64,000 nt of DNA, from positions 22,942,001 through 23,006,000 of the forward strand of contig OZ076409.1 of NCBI GenBank assembly GCA_964187785.1. The letters are read 5' to 3'. Shown piece after piece: positions 6,661 to 63,800 of this stretch. The position numbers and the translations under genes were made by a program. The stretch is from Amphiscolops sp. MND2022 (taxonomy: Eukaryota). Under the pieces are notes generated by a model. The model was given only the letters and a program-made list of their open reading frames with translations, was not told the DNA's origin and searched no databases. Each line of letters opens with the position of its first letter. Position 1 is the first letter of the stretch.

Positions 6661-8131
6661 AAAACTTACAAGGAAAACTATTATTGTTGCTCTAAAAAGT
6701 CATGTAAAACTCTATATATTTCATTTTGTGCAAGTTATATTATGTAATTCTATGCATTAATACGAGTTAATTGGACACCAAGGCGTACAGGTAAAGGAAA
6801 CGCGTTCAAATGTTTTCTTGCCTGTCGCCTTGGTCCGCAAGTCCGACTAACTCGTCATCCAATCATAGCGCAGTGTTATGTAACCTTTACTCGTGCTGGC
6901 TTAATAGAATTAAAAGACTAGACGGCTATATGCCGCCTGCTAATAAAGCGCTGGGCTGTACCAGTCTATTGGACACTGAGTCCGCGCTTTAATTGAGAGT
7001 GCTATTCTATCTAGCAGTACTGGTTATGTAATAATTAATCTTTTGATAGCTAATAAAAGGCGCTATTAGTCCTCAAAGGACTGATTTAATATTTTAGACT
7101 TAGTTTGATGGTGTTGCTTTATATGTAATTTGCGCGATATATTTAGAATATATGTAAAATTACCATCTATACATGTAATAAGCATTTCATACATGTAATA
7201 TGTATTTCATACATGTAGCACGTTGATTAGTATGCATGTAAGCAGTTACTTGTCCTAACGGACTCATGGTCCCACCGCCATATTTGCCGCCAAGAGGGAC
7301 CTTTGATCTACATGATGTAATGTTGACGTTTCCTGCTATTTATAGATTGTAGCTATATTTAGAAAGCCTTTAAGGCTATTTTTAGATTATGACCACCATT
7401 TTATTGAGTGTCATGCAAATTCAAATATATATAACCGGGACTGGTGGGCTCGGGGACAGAATTAACCTGATGATACTTTGATGTGTTACTGTTGCGAATT
7501 GTTTATTAAAACTACCCGTTCATTTTCACTTTGCAAGCCCAAGATATTAATTTAAATTCTTGCCTCTTGCAATAATCTCTTATGCCTTCCACTAGACGAC
7601 AGAAAGCCAAAGCTAGGAGATCTAGAGAAATGGACATACTGTCCGACTATGATAACCTAGATGTGATGCTGGGAAATGAAAATAACAATCCCATTGAAAG
7701 AGAGCTAGCTGAAGCAATAGATCAGTCATCGGCCCACGGGGACGGTGATACGAACGTGTACCATGAAAATGAGTTTAGAGGTTACTTACATGAAAATGAA
7801 CCTTTGAGACAAAACGAAGTCAGGCAATCCTTTGAAGCCTTTTCAAGTGAGTTTAATCTTAGATTGTCTCAAGAAATGGAATCTATGATGTCAATAATGC
7901 ATAGCCAAATAAATAGGGCTATATCGACAGCTATAGCTGAAAGAGTTATTCCAGAAATCCAGAATATTGCAAACTCGATGTCCTCTATGGGACACAGGGA
8001 CACTGAGGCCAGTTCGTCTCCAAATAGTCAGGAGAACAGGGAAAGCGCACCCGGGCCTAAAATAAAAATTGCAAAGAAAGATTCAAGATCTGTAGGAGAT
8101 TTAAGAGATACCATGGGTCATGGTTCTTACA
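6572..8131 (+). repeat. 3' LTR of element C (~1560 bp, boundaries inferred)
   Basis: Begins TGTCCCAG (cf. TGTCACAG in A and B) and ends TCTTACA in the same Gag phase as A and B. TATATATAA at 7426-7434, ATTAAA at 7505. No second copy in the window. Confidence 0.65.
7582..8131 (+). CDS. gag: LTR-encoded Gag N-terminus (3' LTR copy; frame runs on into flanking DNA to 8256)
   Basis: MPSTRRQKAKARRS start resembles MPERSSKRKARRDS of B Gag; helical middle region; 183 codons + A at the inferred LTR end. Confidence 0.6.
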
Positions 8132-17694: not shown

Positions 17695-17726
17695 AACAGT
17701 TTCTCTCGCAAGGGTTACTGATGACG

Positions 17727-32935: not shown

Positions 32936-34198
32936 GTTTTTTGGTTCATCGGGAGTTTAGATTGTCGTTGGTTGGGCGGAGTTGTCCGTCTTTCGTTCTT
33001 GTTGGTTGTGACGCTTAGGTCGCGGATCGTTGGCAGCATTGGCTCCATTCCAACAATCTTCCGGTTTGTGGGGTTTGCCACAAGTGTCACATATGAGTGT
33101 GGTGCCTGCGCTTTTATTTGGGCCGTTGTGTCTTCAGGTTTGGAGCCACTTATATCTTCTCATCTTCTTACAATCGGCTTTGAAATGGCCGAACTTGTTG
33201 CAATAAAAGCAATATCCGTTTTTGGTGTTCTGAAAATTGTTTTCTGCTGGTTTGGTTTCAGTTTTTGATTGGGCCGGTTCTATTTTGTTGAGTGGAACGA
33301 GAATTACCTCGTCTGGTGCTCCAAGTCCGTTGAGTCTCATTTCTTTTTCCAGTTGAAGCACAATGTCATTATACGGCTTGTCTTCAAGGTATGCCCTATT
33401 GAGTATTTTCTTGACATGGTCGGGCAGTTTGGCGTATATGGCTTTGTCAATGAAATGTTGGGCTTCGGCACCGAAAACTTCTTCAACTGTTTTCTGGATT
33501 TCATCCAAGAATTCATATAATTTTTGTGTTGAGGTGTTAAATCTAAGTGTATCCCATTCACATTGCGCTTTTGCCATCGACAAGTAGTCGCCGAAGCGAC
33601 GTTTAAAAAAAGTCATGATTTCGTCCAACGAGTCGTTTTTGGTGTCATCTATTGTGCAGAACGCTTGTAGGGCGTCTCCTCTGAATAAGGAGTAGAAATC
33701 GTTGATTTTCTAAATTTCCGTGAGATGTGGGTACATCTTGATGTTATTACGCAAGAGATCCTCAAATAGCTCGAATTTCGCTGATTTCCCATCAAAAGTT
33801 GGGAGAGATGCTGTTGAGGTTTTCGGCATGGGTAACGTAGTGCCGTCGTTCCTATCTGTTGCGAAGAGCGTCCTGGCCACTACGGGGCGTTCTTTTGATG
33901 CCGGTTGGCTTGAGACCTTATTTTCGGTCTTAGGTTGAGTGATGGAGTAGTTTAGAACTCATGTCACAATGTTACGACTACTACACGGGTCGTTATTTTG
34001 AGTAGAGTTAATTCTAACTGACTTAGTAGGAGTATAGAAACTTTTGGTTTCGTTTTCAGTATCCTCATCAGGTTCTTCTCTGACATTGGTGTTTGTTTTA
34101 GCTTTAAGCAATTTCAGTATTTCCTTTTGGGAATCTGCTAAAAGACTCTTGAGCTCAGACGGTATTTCATCCTTCAAAGAAGTTTTCAATCTCTTCAA
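32933..34198 (-). pseudogene. gag: gag of element A (begins in the LTR), decayed
   Basis: FFKRRFG..AQCEWDTLRF capsid-like region, CFYCNKFGHFKADC knuckle, and a frame crossing the LTR end (..SRNIVT*). Confidence 0.85.
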
Positions 34199-34850
34199 GA
34201 CACTACTTTCAACTGTGTGGGATTTTGCCCTCGAACGTCCTGGAGAGCCGACGTCCTGGTCAACGGAGATGTTGTTTCCTATTACGATCGGTGAAACTAA
34301 AACTCACTAACACTCTCAGAGCTCTCCTGTTGATTGTGATCACTGATATCTTTATCAAAGTTGAGAAAAATGTTTAAAAGCAAAGAAAATGCAAAGCAGC
34401 TGGATTTCACAAATGAAAAAGACTGAATCCCCTTATCATCATCGCACATTGTATTTATACCCTCCTAGCATGATGTGATCACGATTGAATCCTCGAATTT
34501 CCACAAGTAATTAGTCACTTCCTGTATCTTCGATGAAAAAATTGTTTTGTTCACAATTTTAAGTCGATATTTCGTCAAATTTTGAGACACTACACTTTTA
34601 ACTTAGTATTAGTCATCAAATTTGATCATATCATTTCATCCCGACGTCCTTTTGTTTCCTCCCAAGCAGGAAGTAGTTATTACGTCGGTCTGTCAAACGG
34701 GATATGAATCCCTGTTTTTTTGCGTTGATTCGTAGGAAAATTGACGCTGAGATGACGCTGAGATGACGCTGACATGAATGACTAATACCTGATTTTGAAT
34801 TTTTAATCGAAGAAAAAATGAATATTTCGTTCGCTTGGAATATTTAGAGA
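33970..34850 (-). repeat. Truncated 5' LTR of element A, with degenerate PBS TTGTGACATGAGTT at 33956-33969
   Basis: Similar to 20252-21150. The PBS differs at 2 positions from B's TGGTGACAGGAGTT. Confidence 0.85.
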
Positions 34851-43695: not shown

Positions 43696-45350
43696 CGCCT
43701 GGAAGAAGTCAGAATTGTATGGAACGGTCACATTGTTGACGCAAACGTTCTCTGCAATTACAAACTTAGCAATTTTATATGTGAACTAATGTAAGATGAA
43801 GGATTATACCGATAACTTTTATTTCATTGGACCAAAAGTTCATAGCAACGTTGTAAAAATATGTTATTCTGAGAGTGTATTTCTTCTACATGTTGCAGTT
43901 ATAACGCAGATGAATCCTTTTGTATGATGTCCTTGACATTAGCGCCGGTAGTCCGGCAGTGGATTATCGCCATCTACCATAAGTTTGCTGCGGTTATTGA
44001 TGTTTGTAGCTTGTGAGCTACTAATTTTGATCTAATTTCCCCCAGAATTTGGAATTTTATTTTTTTGTTCAATGCCCCTTTTTAAAAACTGTTTGAACTT
44101 TGGTCCTGAGGATAGTAGCAAAATCAGATGCACGGTACTTTTAGCAATGAAAAACCAGGATCGGTTAGATAGTTTCTCTTTGGTGCGGGACCTCCTCACA
44201 CGGAACGTAACTCTAAGGAGGTAAAATGGATCTGCAACGGATGGGAGCCAGACAAGGGCAAATTTCCTATTTCTGCCGATTCCTCCCTTCTTATGTCGTA
44301 CTCAGCGCCCTATCACGGCTTGACAATACAAAAACACTCAGTCTACTCTTTACTACTACATTAAAATCTTTACATTAATCAGTCTAATCTCTACTACACT
44401 AGAAAGCGGTACTGACATTGTTTTGAGGGCGTCGAGCTTTGCCCATATGTTCAAAGTTCTTTTCTTTGCAGATCTCGTGAAATGTGTCTGATTTTTTTTT
44501 CGATTTCTACCTCATATTTCTGAAAACTCAAATAGATACGGACACCATTCTCCCTCCGAAAGTACAACAAGGATGTGGGCTGGTTCTTGTACCAACGAAG
44601 TTTCCGTCATCAAGTACGCCTACGTTTTTTTGCCTACGGAATCCATGGTTTCAAAAAATATACAAGGGTTCTGCAGGCTACATTTTAGCATAGTAACGTC
44701 GAAAGTTTTTTCGTTCTGGATTTTTAGGCAAAAAAGGGATGAAAAAATTATCATTTTTTCCCATTTTAGCTGATATTCCTCAGAACTGAAAACATACGGA
44801 AACCTTCCTCCCTTAGAAAAGGGATGTAGGATTATTTTACTACCATCATAGTTTCCTTTTTTTAGTTCTTTCATCGAAATTTCCTGATATGAGGCTAGAT
44901 TAAAAATTCAAATGGTTTTGGGCCCTGGAATATACACAAATCGTAACACCTTCTGCAAATCATTGAACGTTTCGGCTCGAAGCCAAGCGCGACATGCCGT
45001 CGCGTCTATGTGTAATAGTTCTTCAGCAGTTGTTTGAATAAAGCAAATGTTCCTATAAAAAAGACTCCATGTCTTCCAACAAATCTGAAAATTTTATCAC
45101 ACAATTTGATTTCAGTTTAACCCTTGAAAACTAATGGTCGCTCCAGGAGTGTCCATTAGTGTAGCTTGCCAGTCATATTAAGTGGAACGTACGATGTCGA
45201 GCTGCCAGAGGCATGATTCCAAACACCAATTAGTTGGAAGTTTCATTGTCACTTTGCCTTTTCAGTTGTGATGTTTCGAAAATGTGTAAGTTGCTATGGC
45301 ATTACAGATAGTTATTACTATAGCAACATTCCCTGCAGTTTTATTGCTAC

Positions 45351-47259
45351 TGTGTTGACCGTGATTCGAGAGTAAATCACTTGGTTCAACCGATCTATAC
45401 CTATAATCCGTGTTTCCTGCGTCCTCGTCATCGGGGTCATGACGCACGTTGTTAGGTGGTTTTTCTGCCAGTGTATCAATTTTAGAAGTCAGGTTCTCTA
45501 TCATCTTCAGAATCTCGCGCTGTCCGACTTCTGCGTCTTTGATTCTTTTACTTACAGACTTTTCTATCTTTTCAGATAATTCCGTAAAATCTCTATCAGA
45601 CAAACTAGGTGCGTTTTCAGTTGTCATGCTAGAAGATTCAGGTTCGTCTAAGGAGTTCACAGGGGAATCCCTTCTGGCTTTTCTTTTGGAGCTACGTTCT
45701 GGCATCTTACTTAGGCTTGGTAATTCTCGATTTTCTTTTTAAGGAAATTAGAGCAAGTTCTCAAGTGACAAAGCGTGATGTTTCAAGATTTTTAATTATC
45801 GTTAAACGGAAAATAATTGTTTCGCAAAATAACAAAATTCAACTAAAATGGCTTTTAGCTCCCATTGTATTTATACATTCCATCCCGGAAAGCGGGGAAA
45901 AGACACGAACATACTTCAGATTTTGTTCAGTCCGGCGTCCGTCCGAGGCAGGGAAACAGGAAGTTCAGTTCCGCTTTGTCGAACTCAGGCTTTCAGCTTG
46001 TTCATGCTTTCCGAAGAAAGCACGCGTCCACTTCCTGTCTGAGTTGCGACTCCGCTTCCCTTCGCCTCCAACTTCCCGCCTCTTCAGGACGCCGAACTGA
46101 AAAAACTATCAAAGACACGCGCAATGAGTCATTGAATGAGATTGATTAACTGCACAATATTGGGAAAAAATGATGACAACCAATTTTCCTTTACAAATAT
46201 TTCTCTAAATTAAATAAATCAGCAACAATTTGGATGAAATTTAACACAAATCACACATTAAGTTTTAAATGAAAGAGTAGAATTGCTTCTACAGTATTTA
46301 CGGCTCTGATTTTTGGTTAAGATCACGAAGCCTGGTCCCAGGCCAAAGTCCGGGACGGACAAATTTGTTCAATGAGTAAAGCAACTATTAATTATAAACA
46401 GCATCAGATACATTGTTCAGAAAGGTATTTAATGCAATTAAACGGCAACAGATTCAGGGAACAGGATATACATGTTATTAACACTTGGTTTGATATTCGG
46501 TACTAAATCTTTGGTCCAGGCTGCGGTTCAGGCCTGTTTATAGATTAATCAATATTTACATGTAAAAGAACGTTGTATGCGATATTTTAAACGACGATAT
46601 AGTTCAAGATCATAGATAATAGTCTCTAGATTCATTTCGAGACAAAGTTACATGATAGCATCATCATCTTTCACTTTCGTGATTGATTTATTGTATGTAT
46701 ATCTCAGGCCGCATCCCAGGCCGCGGTACGTGATGTTCTATTAAGTTAGCACAGAAATCTCAATTGTTGGTATATTTGCACTCGTATTGTTAATAAATCA
46801 CTGCACTAGACATTAGTTCATTTACATGTATTCATTATAGCGCGCACTTGTATATTAGTTTGCTGAGTTTACAATTCTCAGGCTGCCTGCCAGGCCGCCG
46901 CTTTAGTGCGAGTATTTGAGGCCGGCTGCGTATTAATCAGTTCCCTCTTTAATTTCTCGGTTCGTTCACTGAGCGGTGCAATTCGATTATTATTATTACA
47001 TAGTATTGTAATATTATTAACTGCACGAATAGCTCCGTTATTCCGTAAGTACGTATTTATATAAGTGTACATTATTATGATAATAATACTACTATGCATA
47101 TATTTATTTATTTACCTTCAAATTTATATTGTTTAACTCTTTTGTTTCTGATTGTTTGTCAGCTGTCTATTTCCTCTTCTTTTGTTCTTTTCCCAATTTA
47201 TTCTTCGAAGACTGGGTTGTGTTTGTTGCAATACTCGCAGCTCAGACGGGGCTGTGACA
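45351..47259 (-). repeat. 3' LTR of element B (1909 bp)
   Basis: Direct repeat of 58902-60808; contains a second copy of the Gag N-terminus (ORF 45262-45705 reads out into the flank). Confidence 0.97.
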
Positions 47260-47782
47260 GTCCTCGGCTTCTGTACCCAGTTCCCTCAGGAAGGAGAAAT
47301 TGGGAAATTGATCGAATCGGGGTCTCAAATAGCGTTGGGAGATCGTCAGTTAAGGAATTGTAGGATCGCCAAGATGAGTCTGTCTCCCAATCGCTTCCCG
47401 AATAGTACCCTTCTGAGCTACTGTAGAAACTTATTGGGCTATCAACGTTGTAGTCGGGATTATCGTAAATTTCACGGTCGAATTGCCTGACCGGACTCAC
47501 AAATGTGTCTTCGGGGATCACTGGGTTGTCTTGCGTGAAACGTCTGATGACTCCCGTCTCGCTTTCTGTGCTCGTGGTATCGGCCGGCGCTTCTTCATGT
47601 ACTAGGACTACGTGGTAGTCCTGTGTTTTAATGATTTCATAAGTAATGTTAATTTGCCGCGTGGTAATTAGGTTATAATCTGGTGGCAGTGTACCTGCTC
47701 TTTGTTCGGGCTGCTGCTGTTGATCTCGTTCGAGAATGAAGACGTCTTCGTCCATTTTGCTGCTTGAATTTGGATGATTCAT
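47198..47782 (-). CDS. Acidic accessory ORF of element B running into the 3' LTR
   Basis: Intact 194 aa; the last 62 nt (LSQPRLSCEYC...) lie inside the LTR. Confidence 0.65.
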   Translation of the reverse strand: MNHPNSSSKMDEDVFILERDQQQQPEQRAGTLPPDYNLITTRQINITYEIIKTQDYHVVLVHEEAPADTTSTESETGVIRRFTQDNPVIPEDTFVSPVRQFDREIYDNPDYNVDSPISFYSSSEGYYSGSDWETDSSWRSYNSLTDDLPTLFETPIRSISQFLLPEGTGYRSRGLSQPRLSCEYCNKHNPVFEE

Positions 47783-48001
47783 TGTAGTAGTAAACTAAGC
47801 GTCAGTCAATTTTTAGTACAACTGATTTGCTTCGCTTGGAAAATTTGTTCACACGGTTTGTGTCAACTCCATGAATTGTTCAGCTGGCAGACTGAACAAC
47901 TCTCCTTATATAGTAAATAACTTTTGATAGTAGAAATTTCCTTGCTTTACGCCACATCTTCTTTGATTTTATGCTGGTTGTTGTTTTTAGATTGTTTGAA
48001 A

Positions 48002-51000
48002 ATGAGTTCAACTGAAGCTGAAAATGTTGTCTTGAGTCAAAGTCGGGCCGTCGGATTGAAGGAGAGCGAGGCCGAGGTCGAGTCTGTGGTAGAGCCTGTC
48101 GCGCAAGGTGAGCGGACAGTGGTTGCTTCTGACGAGGTACAAGGTGGAGAGGCTGGGGATGCAGCTAATGAAGAGCCCGTGGGTCCTGGATTTAAAGAGA
48201 AGGGCAGTTCGAGTGAGGACGGTGAAAGCTGCGCTGAGACGGAATCGTACCATTCAGCAACGAGTGACGGTCGTCATGATCTCAACTACCTAGCGGACAA
48301 GAAAGGTAGGCTTTCTAGAAATTAAATGGTGGCCAGCCTTTCTAGGGTTTGTTGAACGCGTTCTTTTACTTCTACTTTCACAGTGACTGATGATGAGCTT
48401 GACGAAGATTATGCCCCTAGTTTGTCTACGAGGTCGCAGAGCAAGAAGAAATCACGGTCCAGTCGGGTGCTTTCAACGAGTAGTGCGAAGCCTTCTAAGC
48501 GTGTGCGTTTGGCTGACGTGATTTCTGGAGCGATTCCCAAGCCTCCTATGATGGGCGACAGTTCTGGGGGAGATTTTGAACCCGCAACAATTTCTGCATC
48601 CAAAACACTTGCAAGTAGGTAATCTTTCTCTTTCTTGTCTCTATGAAGTTTTCTTCGGGTTTTCATTTGTGGTTGTAGGGTCTACATTCCACTTCTGTAT
48701 ACTTCATATTCGCTTTTGTTGTACTTGCCGATCCTTATCCTGGTCTGGGGGATTGCTCCGATCCAGAAAATGATGTGTTTGCTGTTGAGGCTGCAGTTGG
48801 GACGCCGGCCCCAGAAAGCGACGCGTTGTCGGTGTTGCCTGAAGGTCTTTCTCGTCAGACACGGACACAGCACAATCGTCCAGCTGTGGGGCTCGAGCCT
48901 TCAGTGGTCCATAATGAGTGGGAGAGAGGCACAGTTTTTAAGTTTCTGTTGTACAGTGTTGCTCATTGTAGTTATGTCGTAGGTTCGTTGTATTCCGTTA
49001 TGTAGTGTGTCTTGATTTGGTGAATGGGGTTGTTAACGTGTATTGTGATATTTTAGTTGGTCTGAAGTCTGTTCCTCCGGGTTCCCCCATGGTGATGACG
49101 GCAGCTCAATGCGTCATTCTTGCGCGGAGTGCGGCCCGGGCAGAGCGCCGTGAAACTTTAAAGGAGACCAAGACCTTGGCGAAGCGTAAGTAGTAGTGTG
49201 TCTTGTTGATTGTTTTTCCTGTCATCTGATTTCTATTATTTCTGGCTGTATTTTGTATTGTATTGCTTTGTTTATTACTTGCCGACTGTGTCTGTATTCT
49301 TCTGTTCTGCTTGTATTCTGATTGTTGTAAAGGTGTGTGATGTTTAGAATTTGAAGAATTATCACAGTTACTGAAGTCGAGGGGCATCGATGCAGAGGAC
49401 CCTGGTTGGGTCATGGATCCATTGGAGGCCAAGAAGGAAAAGTTGCTGGCGCGAGATGAGGAGCGCCCCAAGAAGCAGTCCGAGCGACATGTATTGACCA
49501 AAGCCATGAGCAATCACCCAATCCCGAAGTTGTTTGTGAGTCGGAGGAGCGACAAAGGGCCGAACGGTTTCAATTGTTCGATCTGTCAAAAGGACGTGTC
49601 CTTTTTATCGCGTGGGCCACGGGGTATCTGGAGACACTTTAAGTGTAAAGGACACTATGCCAAGGATCGCCGTTATCGCTACGATCATGATGAGATGATC
49701 TTTACTGAGAAATTTGATGCCATTCCCGTTGTCGAATTGACGGTGGAACATCGTGCTGAAATTGAGCAGACTCCGCCTGTGGTGTTGGGCAAGATGAACA
49801 AGTTTTTGGAAGACGAAGTTGACGCGCTGGTCAGTGTTCCATCCAACGTGCCTCCGACTACCCTTGTAGGCTGTCTGTTCGAATTGCTGCGGAGTGGTGG
49901 GTCACAGGTGTTTCTCCGTCGTATTTGGAATCAGTTCCGAACGACCCTGCCTGTGGAAAGTCCCTATGCTTCAGTGACCTGGAGCAAGACAGAAACGTTG
50001 GTCGTCCTTGTTCAGACCCTCTATCCTCGGGTGTTACGTCGTGTAAAGTCATGGCTTGGGGACGGCCCATTCAGTTTGGCGTTGCATAGTTCTTACTCCG
50101 GTGTGAAGTGCATCGTCCGTTGCTGCCCCGGTGACTCTTTGCGTGAAGTGCACCTTGTGGATGAAGATCCGAGGGATGTAGCTTGTGGGGCGGAGGTACA
50201 GTGTCTGGCCCGTGCTCTGTCGCTAGTCTCAACTCGGCGGGGGCCCGCTGCTATTCTGGGTTGCTCTCCTGTGCTTTTTAACGCCTATGTGGACTGGTGT
50301 CGCTCAGTGGGTCGGCCTTCTCCTATCGTGGCTATTTCGTTTACTGGAGATGTATTGCGTCGACTTGTAGGTGAATCCAGCTTGGCGTGTGTGGGTGCAG
50401 TCGATCCTTTTGCTACTGTAGATTACCTGGCTCACCGTCTCATGAGGATCCGCAGTCAGGCGTGGTTGCTGGATCTGCCCAAATTCCGCATGTGTCTGGA
50501 AACTGGAGTCGTGCCCTTCGCCTCATTGTGTGATGTGCTGCAAGAATTGTTAGATCACTGGCCTGATGTGAAGCTCAGTTTGTCAAATGACGTTTTCGTG
50601 ATGAAGAAGGTTGCGAATGTTGTGGACCTAGATTCCTTGCTTTGTTCTGATCGCTTGGGTCTCCCTCGCTTGTCGCTATTACATGTGGTGTTGCTGTGCT
50701 TTCGCGCCAACTTCAAGAGACTGTTTGACTCTGGTGCAAAGGATTATGCCTGTAGGAACTATTCCGACTTTTGCTTCTTCTATTGGAGCCTTTTAAGTGA
50801 GCCAGGTGTTCTAAAGGCATTGCGGGGTTTCGAGGACACTCCCCGGCGGGCCTTCCTTCGCGAATGCCAGAGCTATTTGTTGGAATTGTTGAAGCAGTTG
50901 GGGTCTTCTGCCTATGCCAGTTCTCGGGTCGCCCGTTCCCTTAGTTGTCTTAGCGTGGACATGCTCTTGGGTGGCGATGCTGATTATGTAGTGGAATTAT

Positions 51001-51695
51001 TTCAAGAACTGGTTACATGTCTTCAAGAAGCTGGCTACCTTGATAATGTGGATCGCGAGTCGTCGGTGAATGAGTTTAAGTCACTAGTAAAGGATCTTCG
51101 TCAGTTATCAGCAGATTCATCGCAGATTGTTGATGTGTTTGAGTATTTGGAGTCTGTGCATAGCTACCAGTGTCGGATACATGTGAAAGAAGTCGTTCAT
51201 TTGGTTCGTGTTGTTGTGTGTCCTGCTCCTGAGCCCATGCCTCCGGTCGATGTTTCATTCAGTGGGACTCAATTGCCTCCTTCTGTTATCCGTTCCGGTC
51301 TGTATGCAGTTCAGTCATTCGTGGTTCATCCGAAATTTATGTCGAACGATTTGTTGACTGTGGAGTGTCTCGCTGAATTGAAAGCTAACTTGCCCGTTGG
51401 ACATCAATTTTTAGCGCGCAGTTCATTTGATCCTTGGGCTGGGGTCAGTCGCCATTCCAGTGAGGAGATTTTTGCAAGCCTGTTTGGCTGTTATACTGCA
51501 TACTATAATGGACAAGTTGAGGAGTGGAGGATACGGACGTCAGGTCAGTCGGCTCGTCGAGGATGCTCTGGTTCCATTGTTGCTGATGGCGCCTCGTCCA
51601 CTGCTGTTGCTGAGAGTGGATCCGATGTTCCTGGGACGTCTTCTCAAAGTCAGAAAGGGAGTAAGAAGAGTCAGAAGCACGGGAAATCTTGCTGA
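48002..51695 (+). CDS. Antisense spliced BED/hAT-like gene of element B (5' exons partly uncertain; last exon 49348-51695)
   Basis: Phase-compatible GT-AG introns 48306-48383 and 49186-49347; acceptor at 47990 before the ATG; FNCSICQKDVSF..GIWRHFKCKGH BED motif; 760-aa open frame. Confidence 0.85.
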
Positions 51696-52029: not shown

Positions 52030-55000
52030 TTAACTTTCTGATCTCGGACTGCCGTCTGGGCCGCGGTCCGTCAAAACCTGTAATTCTGGGCCGTTGTCCA
52101 GTCCGTCGGAAGAATATGCCAAGTTTGTTGAATTGGCTGTTAGGGCAATGTAATAGGCATAATCTGGTTTCCAATTTGACGTCGGGTTATTTCGAAGGTT
52201 GTAGTGGGATTTCCGGGGGGATTGAGGTGCGGGTGTATTATTTTCGGGTTCATCATCGGTATCGATTAGTGGGTCCTGTGTCTGGTCACTTGGGTGGTTA
52301 GGAATGATTTCGGGGTCGTATACTAGGTTAGGGCTTGGGGAGCCGGGGTCATTGATTGTTTCTGGGGTTGGTTGGATCACTTCAGGTTCGGGTAATTGTT
52401 TGTTTTCGGGTTGGTTAGGGCATTCTTTGTAAAGTTCTTCCCACGCCATTGCGAAGAGGTCGTCGTGCTGTATGGCTACCTCTGTATCCTGCTGGAAGTC
52501 CTTGGGTGGGACTGTAATGTCAGGCAGCTTGTGGCTGCTTGCGAAGGGGCGTAGCCTGATTCTGTGCAGGATCTGTGTGAAATTCGTATGGAGTTTGCGT
52601 ATAAGATAGTTGTTGTTGGGTAGGGTTTTGACCACGATATATGGTCCCGTCCAAAGGTATTCCCGAAACGGCAATTTCGTCGCTTGGCTATGCGCCTTTG
52701 GATGCAAAGCATAGCAGTAGTCGTTTACTACCAAGGGGTGTGCTGATGCTTTCCGGTCATAATAACGCTTATGTCGGACGTAGGCTTGCATCAGGGCTTG
52801 TTGGCTCTGGTTGAGGATTTCTTGTGTTTGTTGTAACACTCCCTCAGCTATTTCGTGGTTGGTTGGGGCAGTGGCCTGGGGTTTAAGGCCGTACTTTAGG
52901 TCGAGTACGTTGTATGGCACTCTTCCATGGAAAACTCGGCTGGGTTCGCAGCCTAATGATGTGTGGTAGGAAGTGTTGTAATTTAAGACTGCCATTGGTA
53001 AGAATTGGTGCCACATCGTTCGCCTCTCTCCTGTCATGATTTTTAGGCTTTCTTTGAGCGAGGCGTGTGTCCTTTCTAGGATGCCTATCGTCTGGGCATG
53101 TTTGGTGGTGGCATGTTTCAGTTGGATTCCGAGAATGGCTGTTGTTTGTTGCATTGCCTCCGATATGAACTGGGATCCTTTGTCCGTGATTATCGTTGTG
53201 GGGAGATAGCAGTGTCTTGTGATGATATCTGTAAGGACCCGTGTGACAGTCTTGGTGTCGATTCTGGCGACGCTATACGCGAATAGATAACGGGAGAATA
53301 CATCCATCGCTGTGATGACTGCAGTGTATCCTCCCGAAGGGTCGTCGAAGGGGACGATGTCCATTTGTAGTGCGTCTTCTGGGCCCATTTCTATTTTGGA
53401 CATGTCGATGAGCGGGGGTGTAATGTTGGCATTTGGTATCCTTTTCGTCTGAGCGCATTCTGGGCATTGTGCAATGTGGGTGGCTATTCGGGCGGCTAGC
53501 CCCGGGAAGTAGTACTTTTCGCGGCATTGCTGGATGGTTTTAGCTATACCTGGATGTTTCCCGAATTTGCCATGATGGTGTTGTATGAATTCATCAACCA
53601 GTTGATGGGGGAGTAGTACTTGCAAGTACTTGACTTTCCCTGTATCGCCAAAATATTGTCGATACAGGAGTCCATCTTTTATGATGATGCGGTCATCTTG
53701 TGTGAGGTATTTGGCCGCTCTGGGGTCGTCGTTCAGAAGTTGGGTGTCGTACGGTTCTTTTAGGATTTTCAGTTTGAGGTTTCTGAGGACGGGGTCCTGG
53801 TCTTGGTACGGTCTCAGACTGCGCGGGAAGCTTGTGTCACTGTGAAGTTGGCGCCGCTGTTCTTGCTCTGGGTCTTGGATGTTATTGCAGACCAAGGGTA
53901 GATTCTCGGGTTGGGAGATGGTTTGGGCAGTTTCACTCTTGGGGTCGGAGTTCTGTTCATGGGGTGTGTAGATCTGTTTTCTGGCTTGTTGTTTACGCTC
54001 CCAAATGTCTTCTTCGGTCTCAGTGTCGTCCTCTGGTAAAAAATAGAACTGATTTTCTTCATGGATGTCGGAGGATTGTATGTTTACCTGGATCGGCGTT
54101 GTTTGAATGTCTTCTCTGATTTGGAGAAGGACTTTTTCTTTGGGGCTAATGTCTAATCGGGAGAGGAAATCGGCTGCTGTATTCACCCTTCCCGGCACAT
54201 GGGCGATTTTAAAGTGAAATTGCAGTACAAAATCGCAGGCATTCCAGAGGGAGGGTGGTATCATCTTGGTTTGAAAAAACCTGGTGACTGATTTATTGTC
54301 GGTTAAGACAAGGGTCGGTTTGGATGAACCCCACAAGATGTGACTATATTCCATAAAAGCGAAATAGATGACTAAAAATTCTTTGGCATAGATTGACATC
54401 TTCAACTGGGATGGTGAAAAAGTTTTAGAGCCAAATGCCACTGGAGCGTAAGTGTTCCTGGTGGATGTGATCTTTTGCTCCGGGTCTTCTTCAGTCATCA
54501 AGGCATATCCGGCATTCCTGAAGCTTGCGTCTGTCATTAGTACGTACTGCCGGTTTGGCAGTGACTGTTTGAGCCAAAGGCCGCATGCGTTTTCTAACGA
54601 TTTGTTGATAGCTTCGAAAATGGATATGAGTTCCTGATCTATCTTTACTGGCTTGTCTGATTTGATGAGTTCATGAAATGGGGCGATCTTTTCTGATAAT
54701 CGGGAAATGTAGTTTCTGTAGTAGTTTACAAAGCCGATGTATCTTTGAAGTCCCTTCTTCGTCCGGGGGAATTTGATGGTCTGAAGGTGTTTCTGGATCT
54801 TGTGGCTTTGGGGTGCCACCCCTGCTGGGGAAATTGTTCGCCCAAGGAATTCGACTTCCTTGGCGCCGAACTGACATTTGGCCATGAAGAGCTGGAGTCC
54901 TGCTGCGCGGATGCATTGGAAAACCTCTCTCAAGTTGTTCTTTAACTCCTCGGGAGTGTTGGTGGCGATTCCAATGTCATCCACGTACTGAGCGCATTTG

Positions 55001-57766
55001 CCCGCCTTTATGGCCTTGTCGAGGTATTCCCTCATGAAACTTGAAAAGGACGACAATGAGCGGCTCAGGCCTTGGGCTGCTGGCGAAGTTGAATGCTAGA
55101 AGTTGAACGGACTTCTGGTCTGCCATTTGCAGCACGTGGTAGGCTTGTGAACAATCAAGCTTGCAAAACAACTTCCTACCGGCGAGGTGTTGCGCCGCGT
55201 CTGTTAGTGTGCTCACTGGATGATTGTTGTTAATGTAATCATCAGATATCAGATTGTTGATTTTTCTGAGGTCGACTAGTAGGCGCAGGCGGCCGTTTGG
55301 CTTCCGTTGGGCGAAAATGGGGCTGGCATACTTGCTGAACGTGAGCGTGGTTTTAATCCCGAAGTAATGCATTAGGGCCAATTCGACCGTCAGATCTTCT
55401 TTCAGGTTAATGGGGCAGGGCAAACTCTGTGAGTAGACGGGGTCGTCTGTTTTCGGTGTGAGTTTGATTTTGAAATCATGGTTGATTCCAATGTCCAGTC
55501 GATGCCTTGCAAAGATGTAGTTGAACTCTATGAGTATTTCTTCGATGTCTTTCTTGTCATCTTCGGAGAGTTGTGAATCGTCCCATTTGAAGTTTTGGAG
55601 GAATGTTTTTCGTTCCTCTTCGCTGTTGTTTGGGTCGAGTTTCTGGATTTCTTCCAGTTCTTTGATTTCTCGGAGAATTCGGTTCTGGATCGGGGTGTGG
55701 GTAGCAGGGTCTCCGGGGTGGTCTGGTGTGGGAAACCAAAAGTTTTGATTGTGAGATGGTTTTTCTGGGGTTTTCAGGAGCTCGTTGATGTATACCATCG
55801 CATCTTCGGAGTCGTCTTCGGCGAGCACTTTGAGTGCTGCTGTGTTGAGTGGTTTGAGTTCTTTTGCCTCTTCGGGGGACAGGATTTTGAATTCTGCTAT
55901 TGTTGTGTTTCGTATGATGGTATAGGGTGTAGGGGTGGTATTTGTTACTCTGATGTCGATTTTTCGGTTTGAGGCTGTTGAGATTGAACTGGCTACCACG
56001 AGGGGGTCGCCACTGCAGTGGTTGGTGGCTGGGTTGATGACACCGGTTGTGTCGACGTTGGATGGTATATCTGTGGAGCCTGTTACTGTTTGTGTCGTTT
56101 CAGGGGGAATAGTGAGTGGATTCTTTATTTGTACTTTGTACAGTTTCCTGTTAAGGGTATATTCATCGGTTTCGATTGAATATGTGAGGTGGGGGAAGTG
56201 TAGCAGGCCCTGGCTCACGTCCAGGATGGCGCTGGTATTTTTAAGGAACGTGAGGCCAAGTATTGGGCCTGTCAGTCGTTTGGCTACGATAAATGTTTCC
56301 TTAAAGTTCCAGTCTCCGATTTCGAATTGGAGGATGATTGTTTTGGTGGGCGTTTCAATGTCGCCATTTGCGACTTGGAGTTTGAAAGGGGTGGTTCCAA
56401 CTCTTTAACTATGTCTTTGGGGGACATTTGGAGGATTTTATTGTAATCGGTTTCGGAGATGCAGTTTACAAGGGCGCCAGAGTCAATAAGGGCGTCCAGG
56501 GTCAAGTCCTGGAAGTCCATGGGGGCGAAGAGCATTTTGTTCTTCTTTTTGAGGGATACTGCTGAAAAGATTGGTATGCACTCTTCTTTTGTTATGGGGT
56601 CTCTCGTGAGGTATTCCGCAATCTGGGCCAGGGGGTAGGACTGGGGTTCGTCCTGGGGTGGTATGTCGTTTACAACACCGGTGGGGGATCCAGATTGTGT
56701 AATAGTTGCGGCAGGGTTGAGGGGTCGAGGCTCCTCGACTTCGTTTCCGGTCTGCCTACTGGAGAGAGAGTTGGGAACGTTGATTTCTCTGACTGGACTT
56801 TTGTTGTTCCTCTGATTTTCTGCAGTCTGCTCAGGGGGGGTAGGACCTGGGAACGTCCTGTTGCGGTGTGCCGTTTGCAGCACCTGATGGGAATTCAGAC
56901 TGCATGTTGGTTGCGTCAGCTATGATGTGTCGATCGGTGTCGATTTCATCTTCTAGCTGACTATTGAGGATAGTGGGTGAGAGCTGTGTCTCGTATTGAA
57001 CGGAGGGTTCTAGGAGAAGGGATCTCTTTTTTCGTTTGGTTTTTGGTTTGGAGATGTTTGTCGCCGAATTGGGTGTAGGTGGGGCCAGGTCCACGGCTTC
57101 GATCGTGGTCCTGTCGGTGAGGTTTCTATGTTGGTGGCTGTCTGGTGCCACGTCCATTGTTGGGGATCGTATGATACCGGCTCTGATAGGGTTTATTGGC
57201 TGGTCTTTTGGTGGAGAATGGGGAGCCGTGGTATAGGATCCCTGGTTCTTGAGTATAGGTTTGACGTTGTTCTGTGAGATATCAACTAGGATTTCTGTCA
57301 CGTGTTCGGCGTCCTGGTTGTAGTCTGGGATAGGTTGAACGGTTTTGGACCTGTGACGTGGTTCGGTGGAAATATTCATCCCTGTTTTTCTGATGTACTC
57401 TTCAAATGGCGTGCATTCCTGCTGTTTGAACGTTAGGGTCGTCTTGTCATACAGTTGAGGGTTGTAGTATGGGTCGCAGTTGAAGTCAGAGTCGTGGAAG
57501 TAGGTTTCAGGGGAAGTGCTTTCTGTTAGGGGTCGTTTAGGAGTATTGTAAGCAGTCGGGTTGTCTAGGTACCACTGAGGATAGTCTTTCTTCGCAGTGT
57601 TTTGGCGATTATATTTGTGGAGCTTGTGAATCTGCCATCTTCGCTGCCAGTCGAGAGATGGTTCTTCATGTCGCTCGGTGTTCCTTTCGTAGTCATAGGA
57701 GTTTGGGGGTTCGGATGTTGTGTACTGTCGGGTTTCGACAGTGTCCCCAAATCGAAGATGTGGCAT
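52030..57766 (-). CDS. pol: pol of element B: unknown domain, aspartic protease, dUTPase-like spacer, RT, RNase H, integrase, GPY/F; three frame disruptions
   Basis: LIDSGA; LDCSQAY; YVDD; MTDAS/KEFL/TDNKS; HHGKFGKHPG..CPEC; MDIV/TDKGSQF/ILER; WTGPY. Breaks near 56835, 56390 and 55078. Confidence 0.95.
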
Positions 57767-57768
57767 AT

Positions 57769-59256
57769 TTAGTTTTTTGATTGGCTGAGCTCCTGGGTTT
57801 GGTTTTGAGGTTGAGTGGTCTGCGGGAGCATGGGTTGGTAGCCCGTTTGGCTATTCGTTTGGTTGTTATATGGGTGTTGATGTACTGGTGTGTTGTCTGG
57901 GGGGTACTGACCTTGTGTATTCTGTGGCAGCGGGATGTTATTCGGTGAAGTTGCTTTAGGGGTCTTCCACCATTGGGGTCTGTTTGCCCAGTTGGCGCCA
58001 GAATAACATTCCTGTGTCGTATGGCTCTTTTTGCCGCAGGTTTCACATGGGTTTGTTATTTTAGTCGGTGCCCTATTGCCTCGGTTGCGGGCTTCTCGAG
58101 CAGTTTTCCGGCAGTTCTTTATTACATGGCCTGGGTAGCCACATCCGAAACACGGGCCTGCTGGTTTGGGCGGATTGGCGGTTTGTTGTGGGGCATCTTG
58201 TACATCGATTTGGTGTACTCCTGTTATGTTGGTTTCGCTTGGGGCCAGGAGTCCGTTTAACTCCATTTCACGCTCCAGGTGTTGGACCATCAGTTCGTAC
58301 GACTCTGTCTCTAGTCTTGCCTGGTTAAGGACTGGTTTTAAGTGCGCTGGCATTTTTGCAAAGAATGAGGTTTCTATGAACTTTGGGGCGTCGTCGCCAT
58401 ATGCCTCTTGTGCCAATTTCTGGTATTGCTCCAGGAAGTCTTGGAAGGTTTGGCGAGTTGGGTCGAAGTAAAGCTGTTCCCACTTACATCTTGCGGTGGC
58501 TATAGATTGTGGGCGAACGTATCGTCTTCGGAATGTGGTAATGATGTCGTCTAAACTGGCGCGGTTTGCGTCTGTCATATTGCGATACGTCTGTAGGGCA
58601 TCGCCTCTCAGGAGGGAGTGGAAGTAGTGAATTTGCTCTTCCTCTGAGATATTTGGATATACTTTGAGGCTCGTCATAAACAGGTCCTCGAAGTGCTCGA
58701 ATTTGTCATTGCGGCCATCAAATGTGGGCATGGTTGTTGAGAGTGCCTTCGGGAGTCTGGGCAGTCCCGCGCTCTGTTGTGTGGCATTCTTCAGGGATTC
58801 GAGCAATTTGTTCACGATATCGTCTGGATATCTCATGTTGGGCGGGGGTAGACTTGATGATCGGGTGGGTATGTCCTGGGTTGTGGTAACTCCTGTCACC
58901 ATGTGATGACCGTGATTCGGGAGTAAATCACTTGGTTCAACCGATCTATACCTATAATCCGTGTTTCCTGCGTCCTCGTCATCGGGGTCATGACGCACGT
59001 TGTTAGGTGGTTTTTCTGCCAGTGTATCAATTTTAGAAGTCAGGTTCTCTATCATCTTCAGAATCTCGCGCTGTCCGACTTCTGCGTCTTTGATTCTTTT
59101 ACTTACAGACTTTTCTATCTTTTCAGATAATTCCGTAAAATCTCTATCAGACAAACTAGGAGCGTTTTCAGTACTCATGCTAGAAGATTCAGGTTCGTCT
59201 AAGGAGTTCACAGGGGAATCCCTTCTGGCTTTTCTTTTGGAGCTACGTTCTGGCAT
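57769..59256 (-). CDS. gag: Gag of element B (495 aa), initiating inside the 5' LTR
   Basis: MPTFDG..LRGDALQ capsid-like region; two CCHC knuckles (CFGCGYPGHVIKNC, CETCGKKSHTTQEC). Confidence 0.95.
   Translation of the reverse strand: MPERSSKRKARRDSPVNSLDEPESSSMSTENAPSLSDRDFTELSEKIEKSVSKRIKDAEVGQREILKMIENLTSKIDTLAEKPPNNVRHDPDDEDAGNTDYRYRSVEPSDLLPNHGHHMVTGVTTTQDIPTRSSSLPPPNMRYPDDIVNKLLESLKNATQQSAGLPRLPKALSTTMPTFDGRNDKFEHFEDLFMTSLKVYPNISEEEQIHYFHSLLRGDALQTYRNMTDANRASLDDIITTFRRRYVRPQSIATARCKWEQLYFDPTRQTFQDFLEQYQKLAQEAYGDDAPKFIETSFFAKMPAHLKPVLNQARLETESYELMVQHLEREMELNGLLAPSETNITGVHQIDVQDAPQQTANPPKPAGPCFGCGYPGHVIKNCRKTAREARNRGNRAPTKITNPCETCGKKSHTTQECYSGANWANRPQWWKTPKATSPNNIPLPQNTQGQYPPDNTPVHQHPYNNQTNSQTGYQPMLPQTTQPQNQTQELSQSKN
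57772..57778 (-). promoter_or_regulatory. -1 ribosomal frameshift slippery site A AAA AAC at the gag/pol junction
   Basis: TCA AAA AAC TAA; the -1 frame continues L-N-M-P-H-L-R-F into ORF 56831-57766. The same heptamer plus stop occurs in A at 32936-32942. Confidence 0.8.
58888..58901 (-). other. Primer-binding site of element B (TGGTGACAGGAGTT; tRNA-Leu-like, identity tentative)
   Basis: TGG directly follows the LTR's CA and resembles the Leu-type PBS TGGTGTCAGGAGT; it also encodes Gag M-V-T-G-V. Confidence 0.7.
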
Positions 59257-60808
59257 CTTACTTAGGCTTGGTAATTCTCGATTTTCTTTTTAAGGAAATT
59301 AGAGCAAGTTCACAAGTGACAAAGCGTGATGTTTCAAGATTTTTAATTATCGTTAAACGGAAAATAATTGTTTCGCAAAATAACAAAATTCAACTAAAAT
59401 GGCTTTTGCTCCCATTGTATTTATACTTTCCATCCCGGAAAGCGGGGAAAAGACACGAATATACTTCACATTTTGTTCAGTCCGGCGTCCGTCCGAGGCA
59501 GGGAAACAGGAAGTTCAGTTCCGCTTTGTCGAACTCAGGCTTTCAGCTTGTTCATGCTTTCCGAAGAAAGCACGCGTCCACTTCCGGTCTGAGTTGCGAC
59601 TCCGCTTCCCTTCGCCTCCAACTTCCCGCCTCTTCAGGACGCCGAACTGAAAAAACTATCAAAGACACGCGCAATGAGTCATTGAATGAGATTGATTAAC
59701 TGCACAAATTTGGGAAAAAACGATGACAACCAATTTTCCTTTACAAATATTTCTCTAAATTAAATAAATCAGCAACAATTTGGATGAAATTTAACACGAA
59801 TCACACATTAAGTTTTAAATGAAAGAGTAGATTTGCTTCTACAGTATTTACGGCTCTGATTTTTGGTTAAGATCACGAAGCCTGGTCCCAGGCCATAGTC
59901 CGGGACGGACAAATTTGTTCAATGAGTAAAGCAACTATTAATTATAAACAGCATCAGATACATTGTTCAGAAAGGTATTTAATGCAATTAAACGGCAACA
60001 GATTCAGGGAACAGGATATACATGTTATTAACACTTGGTTTGATATTCGGTACTAAATCTTTGGTCCAGGCTGCGGTTCAGGCCTGTTTATAGATTAATC
60101 AATATTTACATGTAAAAGAACGTTGTATGCGATATTTTAAACGACGAAATAGTTTAAGATCATAGATAATAATCTCTAGATTCATTTCGAGACAAAGTTA
60201 CATGACAGCATCATCATCTTTCACTTTCGTGATTGATTTATTGTATGTATATCTCAGGCCGCATCCCAGGCCGCGGTACGTGATGTTCTATTAAGTTAGC
60301 ACAGAAATCTCAATTGTTGGTATATTTGCACTCGTATTGTTAATAAATCACTGCACTAGACATTAGTTCATTTACATGTATTCATTATAGCGCGCACTTG
60401 TATATTAGTTTGCTGAGTTTACAATTCTCAGGCTGCCTGCCAGGCCGCCGCTTTAGTGCGAGTATTTGAGGCCGGCTGCCAGGCCTCAGTTCCGTCTTTA
60501 ATTTCTCGGTTCGTTCACTGAGCGGTGCAATTCGATTATTATTATTACATAGTATTGTATTATTATTAACTGCACGAATAGCTCCGTTATTCCGTAAGTA
60601 CGTATTTATATAAGTGTACATTATTATGATAATAATACTACTATGCATATATTTATTTATTCACCTTCAATTTTATATTGTTTAACTCTTTTGTTTCTGA
60701 TTGTTTGTCAGCTGTCTATTTCCTCTTCTTTTGTTCTTTTCCCAATTTATTCTTCGAAGACTGGGTTGTGTTTGTTGCAATACTCGCAGCTCAGGCGGGG
60801 CTGTGGCA
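58902..60808 (-). repeat. 5' LTR of element B (1907 bp)
   Basis: Direct repeat of 45351-47259. Confidence 0.97.
59419..59425 (-). promoter_or_regulatory. Candidate LTR TATA box (TATAAAT), ~165 bp upstream of the gag ATG
   Basis: Similarly placed TATA elements occur in the LTRs of A (34453-34459) and C (7426-7434). Confidence 0.5.
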
Positions 60809-63800
60809 GCTACTTCCATCTAATGAACTTTGCAGCATAACTAAGGAAGTCCTTGTCACATTAAGAAACCAATTCAGAGACTTCGTGGAAGCAGAAATTA
60901 ATACCAGTAAAAAGTCACTCGTTCAGGATGACCTTTTTGTATCATGACCAGTAAAATTTAAAAACACAAAAACTAGTTTTGCTGCAGAGAATTCCATCAA
61001 ATCTTTTCAAAATGGTTCTAAGTCAAGTTCTAATGTCAAACACGAACATCTAAGTTCAAAAAGTAGCTGAGGATTTGTGTTTTCCTTTGTTACATTCGTA
61101 AGTCAGTCGTTGTGGGCCTTGGAAACGCTAGTTCTTCCACCATCTAGTAAGCTGTGAAAAATTCTTACTACAAGAGCATGTTTTTACTTTGAAATTACGT
61201 CAACAAAATAAAATTGAATGAGGAGAATTTGTTCTGTGAACGTTCGATCAGTGAAAACACTTTGGTGCCTTTGCTAGTTCCCTAAGGCAGCTTTAAGTCG
61301 ATCCACCAACAAAGCCTTTTTTCGCTCTGAGCTTTTTGTACCATCTTCAACGTGAACTCTGTTTTCTCTCATGGGGACAGTAAGTCTTAGAGGCTGATAA
61401 TGGAAACTAAAAATAGAGTGTTCCCATTTATGCGCTTTGACCTAAAATCGTTTGCAATGCTTTACAAGAAAGAAGGCAGGGCTGTCGAGACTATTTTTAA
61501 AATTTTCTGTGAAACTATATTGCTGCAAGAGTTCAATGGGTTAATTTTCCTGTTAATTTTCTAAGTTCATCTTGTTAAACTAATGCCGTCAGAAGAATTC
61601 CACCAGTTCCCCCTGATGATCAACTTCTCTATGATTTTTGACAACATTCTGATTTTTCGTTGATTTCTACCAACATTTTAGCGAAATAGGCAACTTTCCG
61701 CCCCGAACTATTTCAGTTGAAACATATTCTTAAGGCTCGAGCGTTTCCACTTATCAACGAACTTAAGAAAAAAATCTAGGTTTGGCTTCGAAAGTGTGTA
61801 AAGTATCCTTTTGTTTTGGGTATTTTATGGTTCTAACTACTACACCATGCACCCATAAAAATGACATTCTCGTTTCATATTGGTTCAATTCACCAATTGT
61901 TTATGTAAAAACTTGAAAAGTTCTTTCAAAACGCATGTATATAGTCAACTACCTAGCGATCAAGACTTTCTAAAAACTAAATATAAAAAACTTAAGACAC
62001 ACTTGTAACGTAGGTGTCTCTTACGCTGAACACTACAAAAGCTTTGACTGCTTAACGAGTTAACGGTTGCCCAGCAGCTACTCTGAACTCAAAACTTCTT
62101 AGCTTTTTATTTCTGATGATCGAGAACTAAATACAAAAATACGAAACGAGTGGCTGCGAAAATTGAATGTCCTTATTGGGCCTTACCTTAGCTTTCGTTT
62201 TAATGAACTGTAACGATAAGCGCTGGCGCTTGAACCGCAACTTAGAGTGGAGGAATTAGAACAGCAAATATAATCTGGGACCAAGATCTCCGCGGCCCTA
62301 GCTCATTTTCCCTCCGAAGGAGCCAGTCCCAAGGTGGGGGAACCGTCTTGTAGGATACTCTCTGGCCTGGTCCTAGTCTGTAACTGCTAAAAGTAACAGG
62401 CATCTTGCATGACTCAAGACCACTGCTCAACTAGCCTTTAAAAATCGGGCTGAAAATCGGTGAAGGTTGAACCGTAGTATTGGAGAATCTGATAAAATCG
62501 CCAAATTGGATAAACAGATGTTATATAACAGCTCTCGAGCACATTAATTTATCACATCGAAAAATACAACAAGAAATCAAGAGTTCAGAGTCATTTGATG
62601 GAAATTGACCTCAGCTTCCCAGCGCTAGCGCTAGTTGCCACACAGGATACCGCAGGAACACTCAGGCGAACATCTGGAACACTGGTTTTCTCTACTGTAG
62701 TAACGGATATCTCCTAGAGATGGACACAATACCGTGTTCTGTATGTGTTGGGGACGTCTTTTAGTCGTCTCCGGTGCTTGTTCGTCGCGAGCAGCGATTT
62801 CTGCTTTTTTGGGGTGCTTTTTCTGGCAGGTACTTCGTCTTGAGCATGTTTGAGTGCCACGTCAAATTTGAACGAATTTTTGACAAAATTTCTAAACATG
62901 TCGGTTGATATTGCTGTACCAGAGCTTGCCGTTACATCACTCCCCAGGCTCCTGGCTTGTCGTCCCTGGCAAGCGGCGTCTGGGCTCGTCTGGAAACTGC
63001 ATCACAGTGACTGCTGGGAACCATCATCCACACATCAGGGAACAAGGACGAGTCCTTGTTTTTCGGCAACAATTTTGGTCAGTTTTTGCGGTTTTTCTCA
63101 ACAAAAAAAACTTACTGCCTAGCTACTTGTACAAAACGCGAACGAGGTTTTAGCACCAGCTCGAGAGCTAAAGTTTTCAGCCGGTTAAATCTCGTTTGGG
63201 CAGCCAATTTGCGTAAAAACTTTATTTGCGACCAAAGTCAGCTAAAATTTCTTTTCCTAAGCATTTGAAACTTGTAGTCTTCAATTCATTTCTGGCGATT
63301 TAAAACTTTTTTTAGAGCTTGCGGGCTCTTACAGTAAACAACCAAATTGATAAAGAACACTAGACTAGAAAGAAAAATGCAACCAAGAGGGATAAAACTT
63401 CTTTTGATGGTGACAACTCAAAAACACCGCGAACGGTGTGCAACAAAAATAGCAGTTTTCTGAATAATAGTTTCTCTTTTCTTTCTGCTTGGTAGCTCAA
63501 ACCACTGGTGCAGGCGTACTCTATTGGCCGTACACCCAGTGCAACACTAATGGTACACTAATCATATAACCATAACTATGAACAAAAATTGCACTTCGTA
63601 TTGTAGCACCGTTCTGGATGAGAAGTTCTAAGGCACTGTTTTGTTGGCAGTTTTTCGAGACTGGGAGCGCGAACGCTCCCGTTAGCGGCTGGGTTCATTG
63701 AGCCGAACTGCGTCGGGTCCGCTCTTTGGTGGTATCATCGGGGGTCTGTTCTGCATTATCAGTCGACACTGACGCTCGACGTCGGGGAGAGACTTCTCTG

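Follow-up and report, generated by a model that had tools for sequence, protein, structure and literature searches.

The gag gene of a retrotransposon in the 64-kb window (by which we mean the whole stretch of DNA that was analysed) begins deep inside its own 5′ LTR and is read in one frame through the LTR end and the primer-binding site (PBS), and the sequences of its relatives indicate that an LTR-coded Gag N-terminus is a clade-wide trait. We regard it as highly probable that the observations as a whole are best explained by a U5-coded gag start shared across this gypsy clade, giving a single Gag with an N-terminal self-association module.

Self-BLAST of the window revealed a 1.9-kb direct repeat (45351–47260 and 58902–60809, 98.3% identity), and base-by-base reading placed LTR termini of the form TG...CACA at both copies, delimiting an element (B) that runs from 60808 to 45351 on the minus strand; global alignment of its 5′ and 3′ LTRs gives 33 differences. 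The pol region matches Pfam RVT_1, RT_RNaseH, Integrase_H2C2 and rve in that sequence, while the protease, for which there was no Pfam match, was read directly from a DSG motif upstream of RT; the RT–RNase H–integrase polypeptide finds Ty3 Gag-Pol as the best of 22 solved matches (E 2e-38). Between gag and protease there is a low-complexity ORF of 339 codons, in the −1 frame relative to gag. Gag ends (57769–57781, minus strand) with an A-AAA-AAC heptamer ahead of the stop; the ORF that follows is in the −1 frame, and the heptamer is likely, as judged by its sequence, to be a −1 frameshift site; many relatives of this Gag terminate in K-N. B is a Ty3/gypsy-type LTR retrotransposon (Metaviridae), an assignment that follows from TG...CA LTRs with a 5-bp target-site duplication, the RT–RNase H–integrase order, the Ty3-like Pol and the Gag knuckles; LTR termini of TG...CA with a 4–6-bp duplication are a published criterion for this group (PMC12440569), and B has both. 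A Ty1/copia (Pseudoviridae) identity was ruled out, the integrase not lying ahead of RT. BEL-type Pol carries Peptidase_A17, DUF1758 and DUF5641, and a BEL/Pao (Belpaoviridae) identity was rejected on the lack of a Pfam match to any of the three, although the Gag does pass the DUF1759 cut-off.

The gag ATG lies 355 nt inside the 5′ LTR (118 codons and 1 nt), and the frame continues uninterrupted across the LTR end and PBS, such that the junction CAC A/TG GTG ACA GGA (LTR end at the slash) is translated as H-M-V-T-G. The sequence-only reading of this DNA had proposed both the position of the ATG and the in-frame coincidence of CA end, PBS and H-M-V-T-G, and is borne out by the base-by-base LTR ends, the target-site duplication and the open frame. 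The remaining two sense frames of the LTR-coded stretch contain 9 and 18 stops, and of 20,000 base shuffles the LTR frame was left open in 6 for B, 0 for element C and 14 for a related locus, L001. The 118-codon frame is also open in the 3′ LTR, where 4 of the 118 codons differ from the 5′ copy (too few for a selection test). The putative PBS begins with TGG and may resemble tRNA-Leu; no tRNA gene was found within the 64-kb window. The stretch ahead of 47259, where the 3′ LTR begins, is purine-rich with interruptions and may be the polypurine tract. We also note that the first bases of the LTR, TGTCAC (47253–47259, minus strand), are the reverse complement of GTGACA in the PBS (58893–58899, minus strand), which may be chance.

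Table. Features of element B and of the corresponding parts of elements A and C, in coordinates of the window
Feature	Position	Strand	Details
5′ LTR of B	58902..60808	-	1907 nt, TG...CACA
3′ LTR of B	45351..47259	-	1909 nt
Target-site duplication GTAGC of B, 5′ side	60809..60813	-	base-by-base reading
Target-site duplication GTAGC of B, 3′ side	45346..45350	-	base-by-base reading
TATA-like box TATAAATA, putative promoter	59418..59425	-	169 nt before gag ATG
ATTAAA, putative poly(A) signal	59342..59347	-	no other AWTAAA hexamer between the TATA box and the LTR end
B gag ORF	57769..59256	-	495 aa; Pfam DUF1759 E 8e-7, Retrotrans_gag E 5e-4; 794 homologues
LTR-coded part of B gag	58902..59256	-	118 codons and the A of the junction ATG
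KRK motif, aa 7–9, basic N-terminal patch	59230..59238	-	nearly invariant columns K7 R8 K9 (alignment A1)
Amphipathic helix, aa 37–80, predicted self-associating coiled coil	59017..59148	-	sequence columns and models
B junction, terminal LTR A and PBS, TGGTGACAGGAGT	58889..58902	-	reads M-V-T-G-V; V120 T121 G122 invariant in alignment A1
Capsid-like region, aa ~166–335	58252..58761	-	most conserved part of Gag; weak fold matches
Two CCHC zinc knuckles	58006..58152	-	read from sequence
B pol region, four overlapping frames	52030..57850	-	protease (DSG motif), RT, RNase H, integrase; interrupted by frame changes
3′-LTR copy of B ORF	45262..45705	-	118 LTR codons and 29 flank codons, 147 aa; called as P0241
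Antisense ORF of B, hAT-transposase-like lead	49341..51695	+	784 codons; between integrase and 3′ LTR
Element A, decayed LTR-coded stretch and junction	33961..34303	-	LTR end 33970; without start codon; stop at 33961
Element C, 3′-LTR copy of LTR-coded domain	7582..8131	+	183 codons and terminal A

The same arrangement recurs in elements A and C. In A, a same-phase but decayed junction had been read, and we find AAC A/TT GTG ACA in the gag frame, preceded by ~110 open codons with no Met among them and followed by a stop three codons past the junction Ile, with two other stops in gag; in P0367 and P0085, which are intact relatives of A, a Met stands 125–126 codons ahead of N-M-V-T-G. The copy in C belongs to a 3′ LTR, and hence no primer site follows TAC A/; its end, earlier inferred at 183 codons, is confirmed by a search with these 183 residues that returned 194 longer proteins, 112 of the 120 listed longer relatives showing a junction pattern of the Y/H-M-V-T-G kind at the expected place (among the other 8, 6 have MVTG or MVRG and 2 enter unrelated sequence). 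In L001, at 36% identity, CAC A lies 388 nt after the ATG and leads into the 13-nt TGG-starting motif seen at the B junction. The order along L001 (1–11842) is pol end, antisense ORF, single LTR and gag, for which a tandem pair with a common LTR and an assembly wrapped through the repeat are possible alternatives. DNA related to B was found at 2 loci from metagenome contigs, and none among viral or prokaryote genome contigs.

Across relatives, the junction Met is preceded by 114–188 codons in 195 Gags (all those retrieved with both a Met-KRK-type start and the junction motif). Among the best 120 of the 794 homologues of B Gag, 77 combine a Met-KRK-type start with the junction motif and 20 another upstream start with it, while 7 begin at the motif and 16 lack a scored motif. 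A second sample, of 112 listed members from eight Gag clusters (14 each from clusters of 38–168, with P0053 and P0253 left out), contains 89 proteins that cross the junction after initiating within the LTR-coded stretch (at Met1 in 74 and at a later position in 15), 5 that end at the junction, 3 that begin at the PBS Met and 15 that begin further down; all such homologue lists consist of gene calls and are biased to open frames. A profile search of cluster representatives gave 3342 matches, and 27 of the best 150 have at least 45 residues before the core, 17 of these fitting a loose junction pattern (several only at the first residue of the protein); these matches gave no indication of host range. 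The residues that NAC can encode, Y, H, N and D, occupy the position before the junction Met in 240 of 245 proteins; this agrees with LTR termini ending in ...ACA (PMC3601003), and we take the junction motif to be a DNA constraint read as protein.

The short relatives locate the LTR end independently. Of 120 listed short homologues of aa 1–118, 82 reach the junction and then enter unrelated residues (of the others, 15 go on with MVTG, 16 end or lose similarity ahead of the junction, and 7 are poorly aligned). In these LTR-only products, the first tail residue fits an A-starting codon in 79 of 80 cases, against 41% at later tail positions (p ~3e-29; the count is 81 of 82 with P0301 and P0306, whose tails begin MV), and in cluster P0253 a further 14 of 14 tails switch over at the junction codon likewise. 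LTR end and phase are thereby fixed at many independent insertion sites, with the LTR pair of B itself unused. In-frame tandem junction motifs, 8, 9, 10, 14 or 17 residues apart, occur in 21 of 506 proteins (P0078, P0080, P0110, P0118 and others; three more of the 24 proteins with repeated motifs, at spacings of 23, 35 and 122, are left out of this count) and are possibly arrays of LTR-end and PBS units. Separately, P0093, P0110, P0114 and P0120 share an H-G-D-R stretch near aa 102 that equals the junction read in the other open phase, and could be either the remnant of a former LTR end or coincidence.

Residues M1, K7, R8 and K9 are nearly invariant in an 18-row alignment (A1), in which columns 40, 43, 47, 51, 55, 65, 68 and 69 are hydrophobic in 18 of 18 rows. 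Within the group of A1 at 47–61%, identity to B is 67% over aa 1–12, 25% over aa 13–36, 49% over aa 37–80, 7% over aa 81–118, 97% over MVTG and 78% over the capsid region, the linker around the junction being the fastest-changing part of Gag. Alignment of the LTR parts of B and A gives z 8.7 in the gag frame against z 3.4 in the next best frame, with 34, 41 and 16 identities of 76 at the three codon positions; B against L001 gives z 6.6 and 44, 51 and 30 of 94 (both codon-position counts come from an alignment guided by protein, a procedure that raises the identity at positions 1 and 2). There was no blastn match among the LTRs of B, A and L001. The N-termini of B and C compare at z 1.4, which is not significant, leaving position and a similarly basic start as the grounds for homology of the C-type domain. 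Divergence within clusters amounts to 6.7% of aligned residues for the LTR part and 2.9% for the internal part, which indicates weaker constraint on the former. We conclude from these comparisons that the LTR-coded part of gag is evolving as protein, and we infer that its KRK patch is NLS- or RNA-binding-like.

AlphaFold2 predicts a single helix over aa 37–80 (pLDDT 91–94 over aa 41–70), flanked by disorder on either side, the junction included. Three copies of aa 30–90, a copy number chosen by the analyst and the only stoichiometry modelled, score 0.41 against 0.01 for the best control, with runs agreeing in at least 84% of contacts and a partner pLDDT of ~70. On calibration with microbial proteins, 21 of 30 solved pairs and 0 of 23 single chains attained the mark applied to this trimer; with eukaryotic proteins, 17 of 29 pairs and 0 of 30 single chains did so (1 of 7 for pairs without an older solved relative). 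The models support self-association of the helix and do not show it. An Atlas search with aa 1–125 reached a best score of 0.81, below the useful range; a fold search with the whole Gag model returned no match at E 0.001 or better, its top Foldseek rows being capsid C-terminal domains (weak, E 0.36, TM 0.70 of target).

The placement of control signals bears on which part of the LTR is coding. In B, L001 and C, respectively, the ATG is preceded at 169, 191 and 156 nt by a TATA-like box and at 91, 55 and 77 nt by an AWTAAA hexamer, although the leaders are AT-rich and this placement is suggestive only, chance being possible; in A, a TATA-like box lies 489 nt before the LTR end, and in C two AUGs fall between the box and the gag ATG. 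If ATTAAA is the poly(A) signal, the R/U5 border lies ahead of the gag ATG, and the motifs suggest that the coding part of the LTR is in U5 only; fixing U3/R/U5 borders requires RNA (PMC3601003). The sequence-only reading had envisaged a domain of 120–180 residues coded in R/U5. Its LTR-coded domain stands, on protein conservation, frame-specific similarity and copy statistics (114–188 codons), while the inclusion of R is at odds with what the motifs suggest.

On this basis, transcription of B would start ~30 nt past the TATA box, near 59395, R would be short and end after ATTAAA near 59320, and U5 would comprise ~420 nt, 355 of them coding; 59256 would be the first AUG of the B RNA, as would the gag ATG in L001. 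A single Gag would then consist of the basic patch, a coiled-coil helix, a fast-evolving linker containing LTR end and PBS, the capsid and two zinc knuckles. Its N-terminal domain is most likely a self-association module in the matrix position, aiding Gag assembly, and the KRK patch might serve nuclear entry or RNA binding. The primer would bind at codons 119–123, minus-strand strong-stop DNA would be ~490 nt long, and the coding U5 would be copied into both LTRs. Such a layout probably arose once the LTR end and PBS fell within a disordered, tolerant Gag linker: the fast linker and the tandem junction motifs fit a duplication and shift of the LTR end in such a linker, a step that stays conjectural because out-of-frame duplications are invisible in proteins.

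Among other accounts of the junction, the sequence-only reading had raised a second start at the PBS Met, giving two Gag isoforms, for which we find no support. A shorter Gag made from the junction Met via internally initiated or spliced RNA would resemble Ty1 p22, the product of an alternative transcript (PMC4599808); nearly all relatives have the Met in frame, always with G at +4 and, in N-M-V-T-G families, with A at −3, L001 has just one AUG between the first start and the junction Met, and B carries a donor-like GTAAG 5 nt ahead of its gag ATG. Yet CA directly followed by TGG always yields ATG, which makes the junction ATG a by-product; and since one of the three junction phases reads into TGA, two phases are left for a read-through element, one of which was inherited, and the in-frame Met needs no second start. 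Four AUGs in B, two of them in frame and with A at −3, and 17 in C lie between the first start and the junction Met, the context of the latter in B has C at −3, neither an acceptor-like site nor a second TATAAA was found in the B region, GTRAG was not found in the leaders of L001 and C, and the gene calls beginning at this Met are the 3 of 112 listed cluster members above. We consider two isoforms unlikely. A still slightly less probable alternative is that 3′ or solo LTRs are expressed, a free N-terminal coiled coil with a random tail poisoning Gag assembly and limiting copy number. Every LTR keeps promoter-like motifs and the entire domain, 82 of the 120 listed short homologues are open LTR-only frames, and the domain is modelled as self-associating; open frames in 3′ or solo LTRs follow, however, from copying alone and are accounted for by young age, and the putative poly(A) signal lies ahead of the ATG. 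The same improbability attaches, in our estimate, to the wider notion of LTRs as dispersed mini-genes (copy-number control scaling with LTR number, and an N-terminal module for host fusion), whose premise is that the LTR brings together a promoter, a start codon and an entire Gag domain able to self-associate.

That the LTR frame is vestigial or accidental, with genuine Gag beginning at the junction Met, seems to us very unlikely. Weaker constraint in the LTR part is in its favour, as are the absence of a start codon there in element A and the fact that most Ty3/gypsy Gags begin with the capsid (PMC10309623). Against these stand the rarity of open frames among the shuffles (6, 0 and 14 of 20,000 for B, C and L001), the frame-specific similarity with saturated third positions, the conserved Met-KRK start and hydrophobic period, and the Met 125–126 codons before the junction in P0367 and P0085, the intact relatives of A. 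A miscalled LTR border, whereby the repeat extended into gag by copy-specific duplication or assembly error, is barely conceivable: the PBS directly follows the LTR end, nothing was found in favour, and TG...CA termini with a 5-bp target-site duplication, together with 79 of 80 independent tails switching at the same codon, exclude it.

Beyond gag, the antisense ORF of B has homologues in A (24743–27222), C (2762–3238) and L001 (4505–5785), at the same place and in the same orientation with 25–30% identity. It contains a C2H2-like finger and has an Atlas feature score of 0.93 to hAT/ZBED5-FAM200 clusters, with no Pfam match and no match among PDB sequences or solved structures, and appears to be a hAT-transposase-like gene that was captured and is present across the clade; additional ORFs in antisense orientation are described in the plant elements Grande, RIRE2 and Retand (PMC7264820). 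Acidic, Ser-rich sense ORFs occur just before the 3′ LTR in B (47198–47794, minus), A (22443–23192, minus), C (5542–6660, plus) and L001 (7518–8249, plus), the three in the window having no Pfam match, and are possibly a second accessory gene. Outside the LTR elements, a 206-codon frame at 17119–17739 (minus strand) reads by eye as a decayed piece of a hAT-type transposase, with no Pfam match. The window also contains a 522-nt tandem duplication (96%) at 11334–12366, a 100-nt palindrome at 42396–42495 and a dispersed repeat at 14167–15133 and 43130–43692 (81–89%).

The usual view of the LTR as non-coding and of gag as internal does not hold for this clade, in which a quarter to a third of Gag is LTR-coded, ~10 times the Ty1 overlap, and integrase end, primer site and codons are stacked at one junction. 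One implication is a strong-stop DNA of unusual length. In addition, intact coding modules reside in solo LTRs, and Gag is truncated wherever only the internal region is annotated. In-frame tandem junction units in relatives offer a testable route for movement of the LTR border.

MMTV Sag and HIV Nef are LTR-coded accessory genes located in U3 and read from the 3′ end of the genome, whereas in B it is a structural gene that starts, in the 3′ part of the 5′ LTR. Ty3, whose pol has the same domain order as that of B and is its best solved match, starts gag downstream of a short LTR. Some database entries record ORFs beginning in LTRs; a full-text search of the open literature by literal phrases found no description of a gypsy-type gag start located hundreds of nt within the LTR. 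In fish elements, a survey places proteins outside the LTR apart from one pol overlap (PMC11117352). Gag of Cer1 (C. elegans, Ty3/gypsy) resembles that of B in having an additional N-terminal domain before the capsid, absent from most Ty3/gypsy Gags, and differs in that 5′UTR positions 957 and 1175 lie beyond its 492-bp LTR, so that its Gag start is apparently outside the LTR (PMC10309623).

The closest parallel is Ty1 of Saccharomyces cerevisiae, cited in the sequence-only reading as a gag start in the LTR by a short stretch, rightly so: GAG begins 40 bp before the 5′ LTR end (~13 amino acids; PMC10512236). Both place the gag start ahead of the LTR terminus, which is itself coding, as is the sequence that follows. 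Unlike Ty1, a Ty1/copia element, B is of Ty3/gypsy type with the RT–RNase H–integrase order and 1.9-kb LTRs, and its clade has 345–565 nt (114–188 codons) LTR-coded, comprising an entire predicted helix and linker. Ty1 is also controlled by p22/p18, a truncated self-encoded Gag able to inhibit assembly in trans (PMC4599808). An internal transcript gives rise to p22, the C-terminal half, whereas the candidates in the B clade, both hypothetical, would be an N-terminal LTR piece or a junction-Met form. The layout of the B clade is a real, clade-wide counterpart of the Ty1-type arrangement, at ~10 times the scale.
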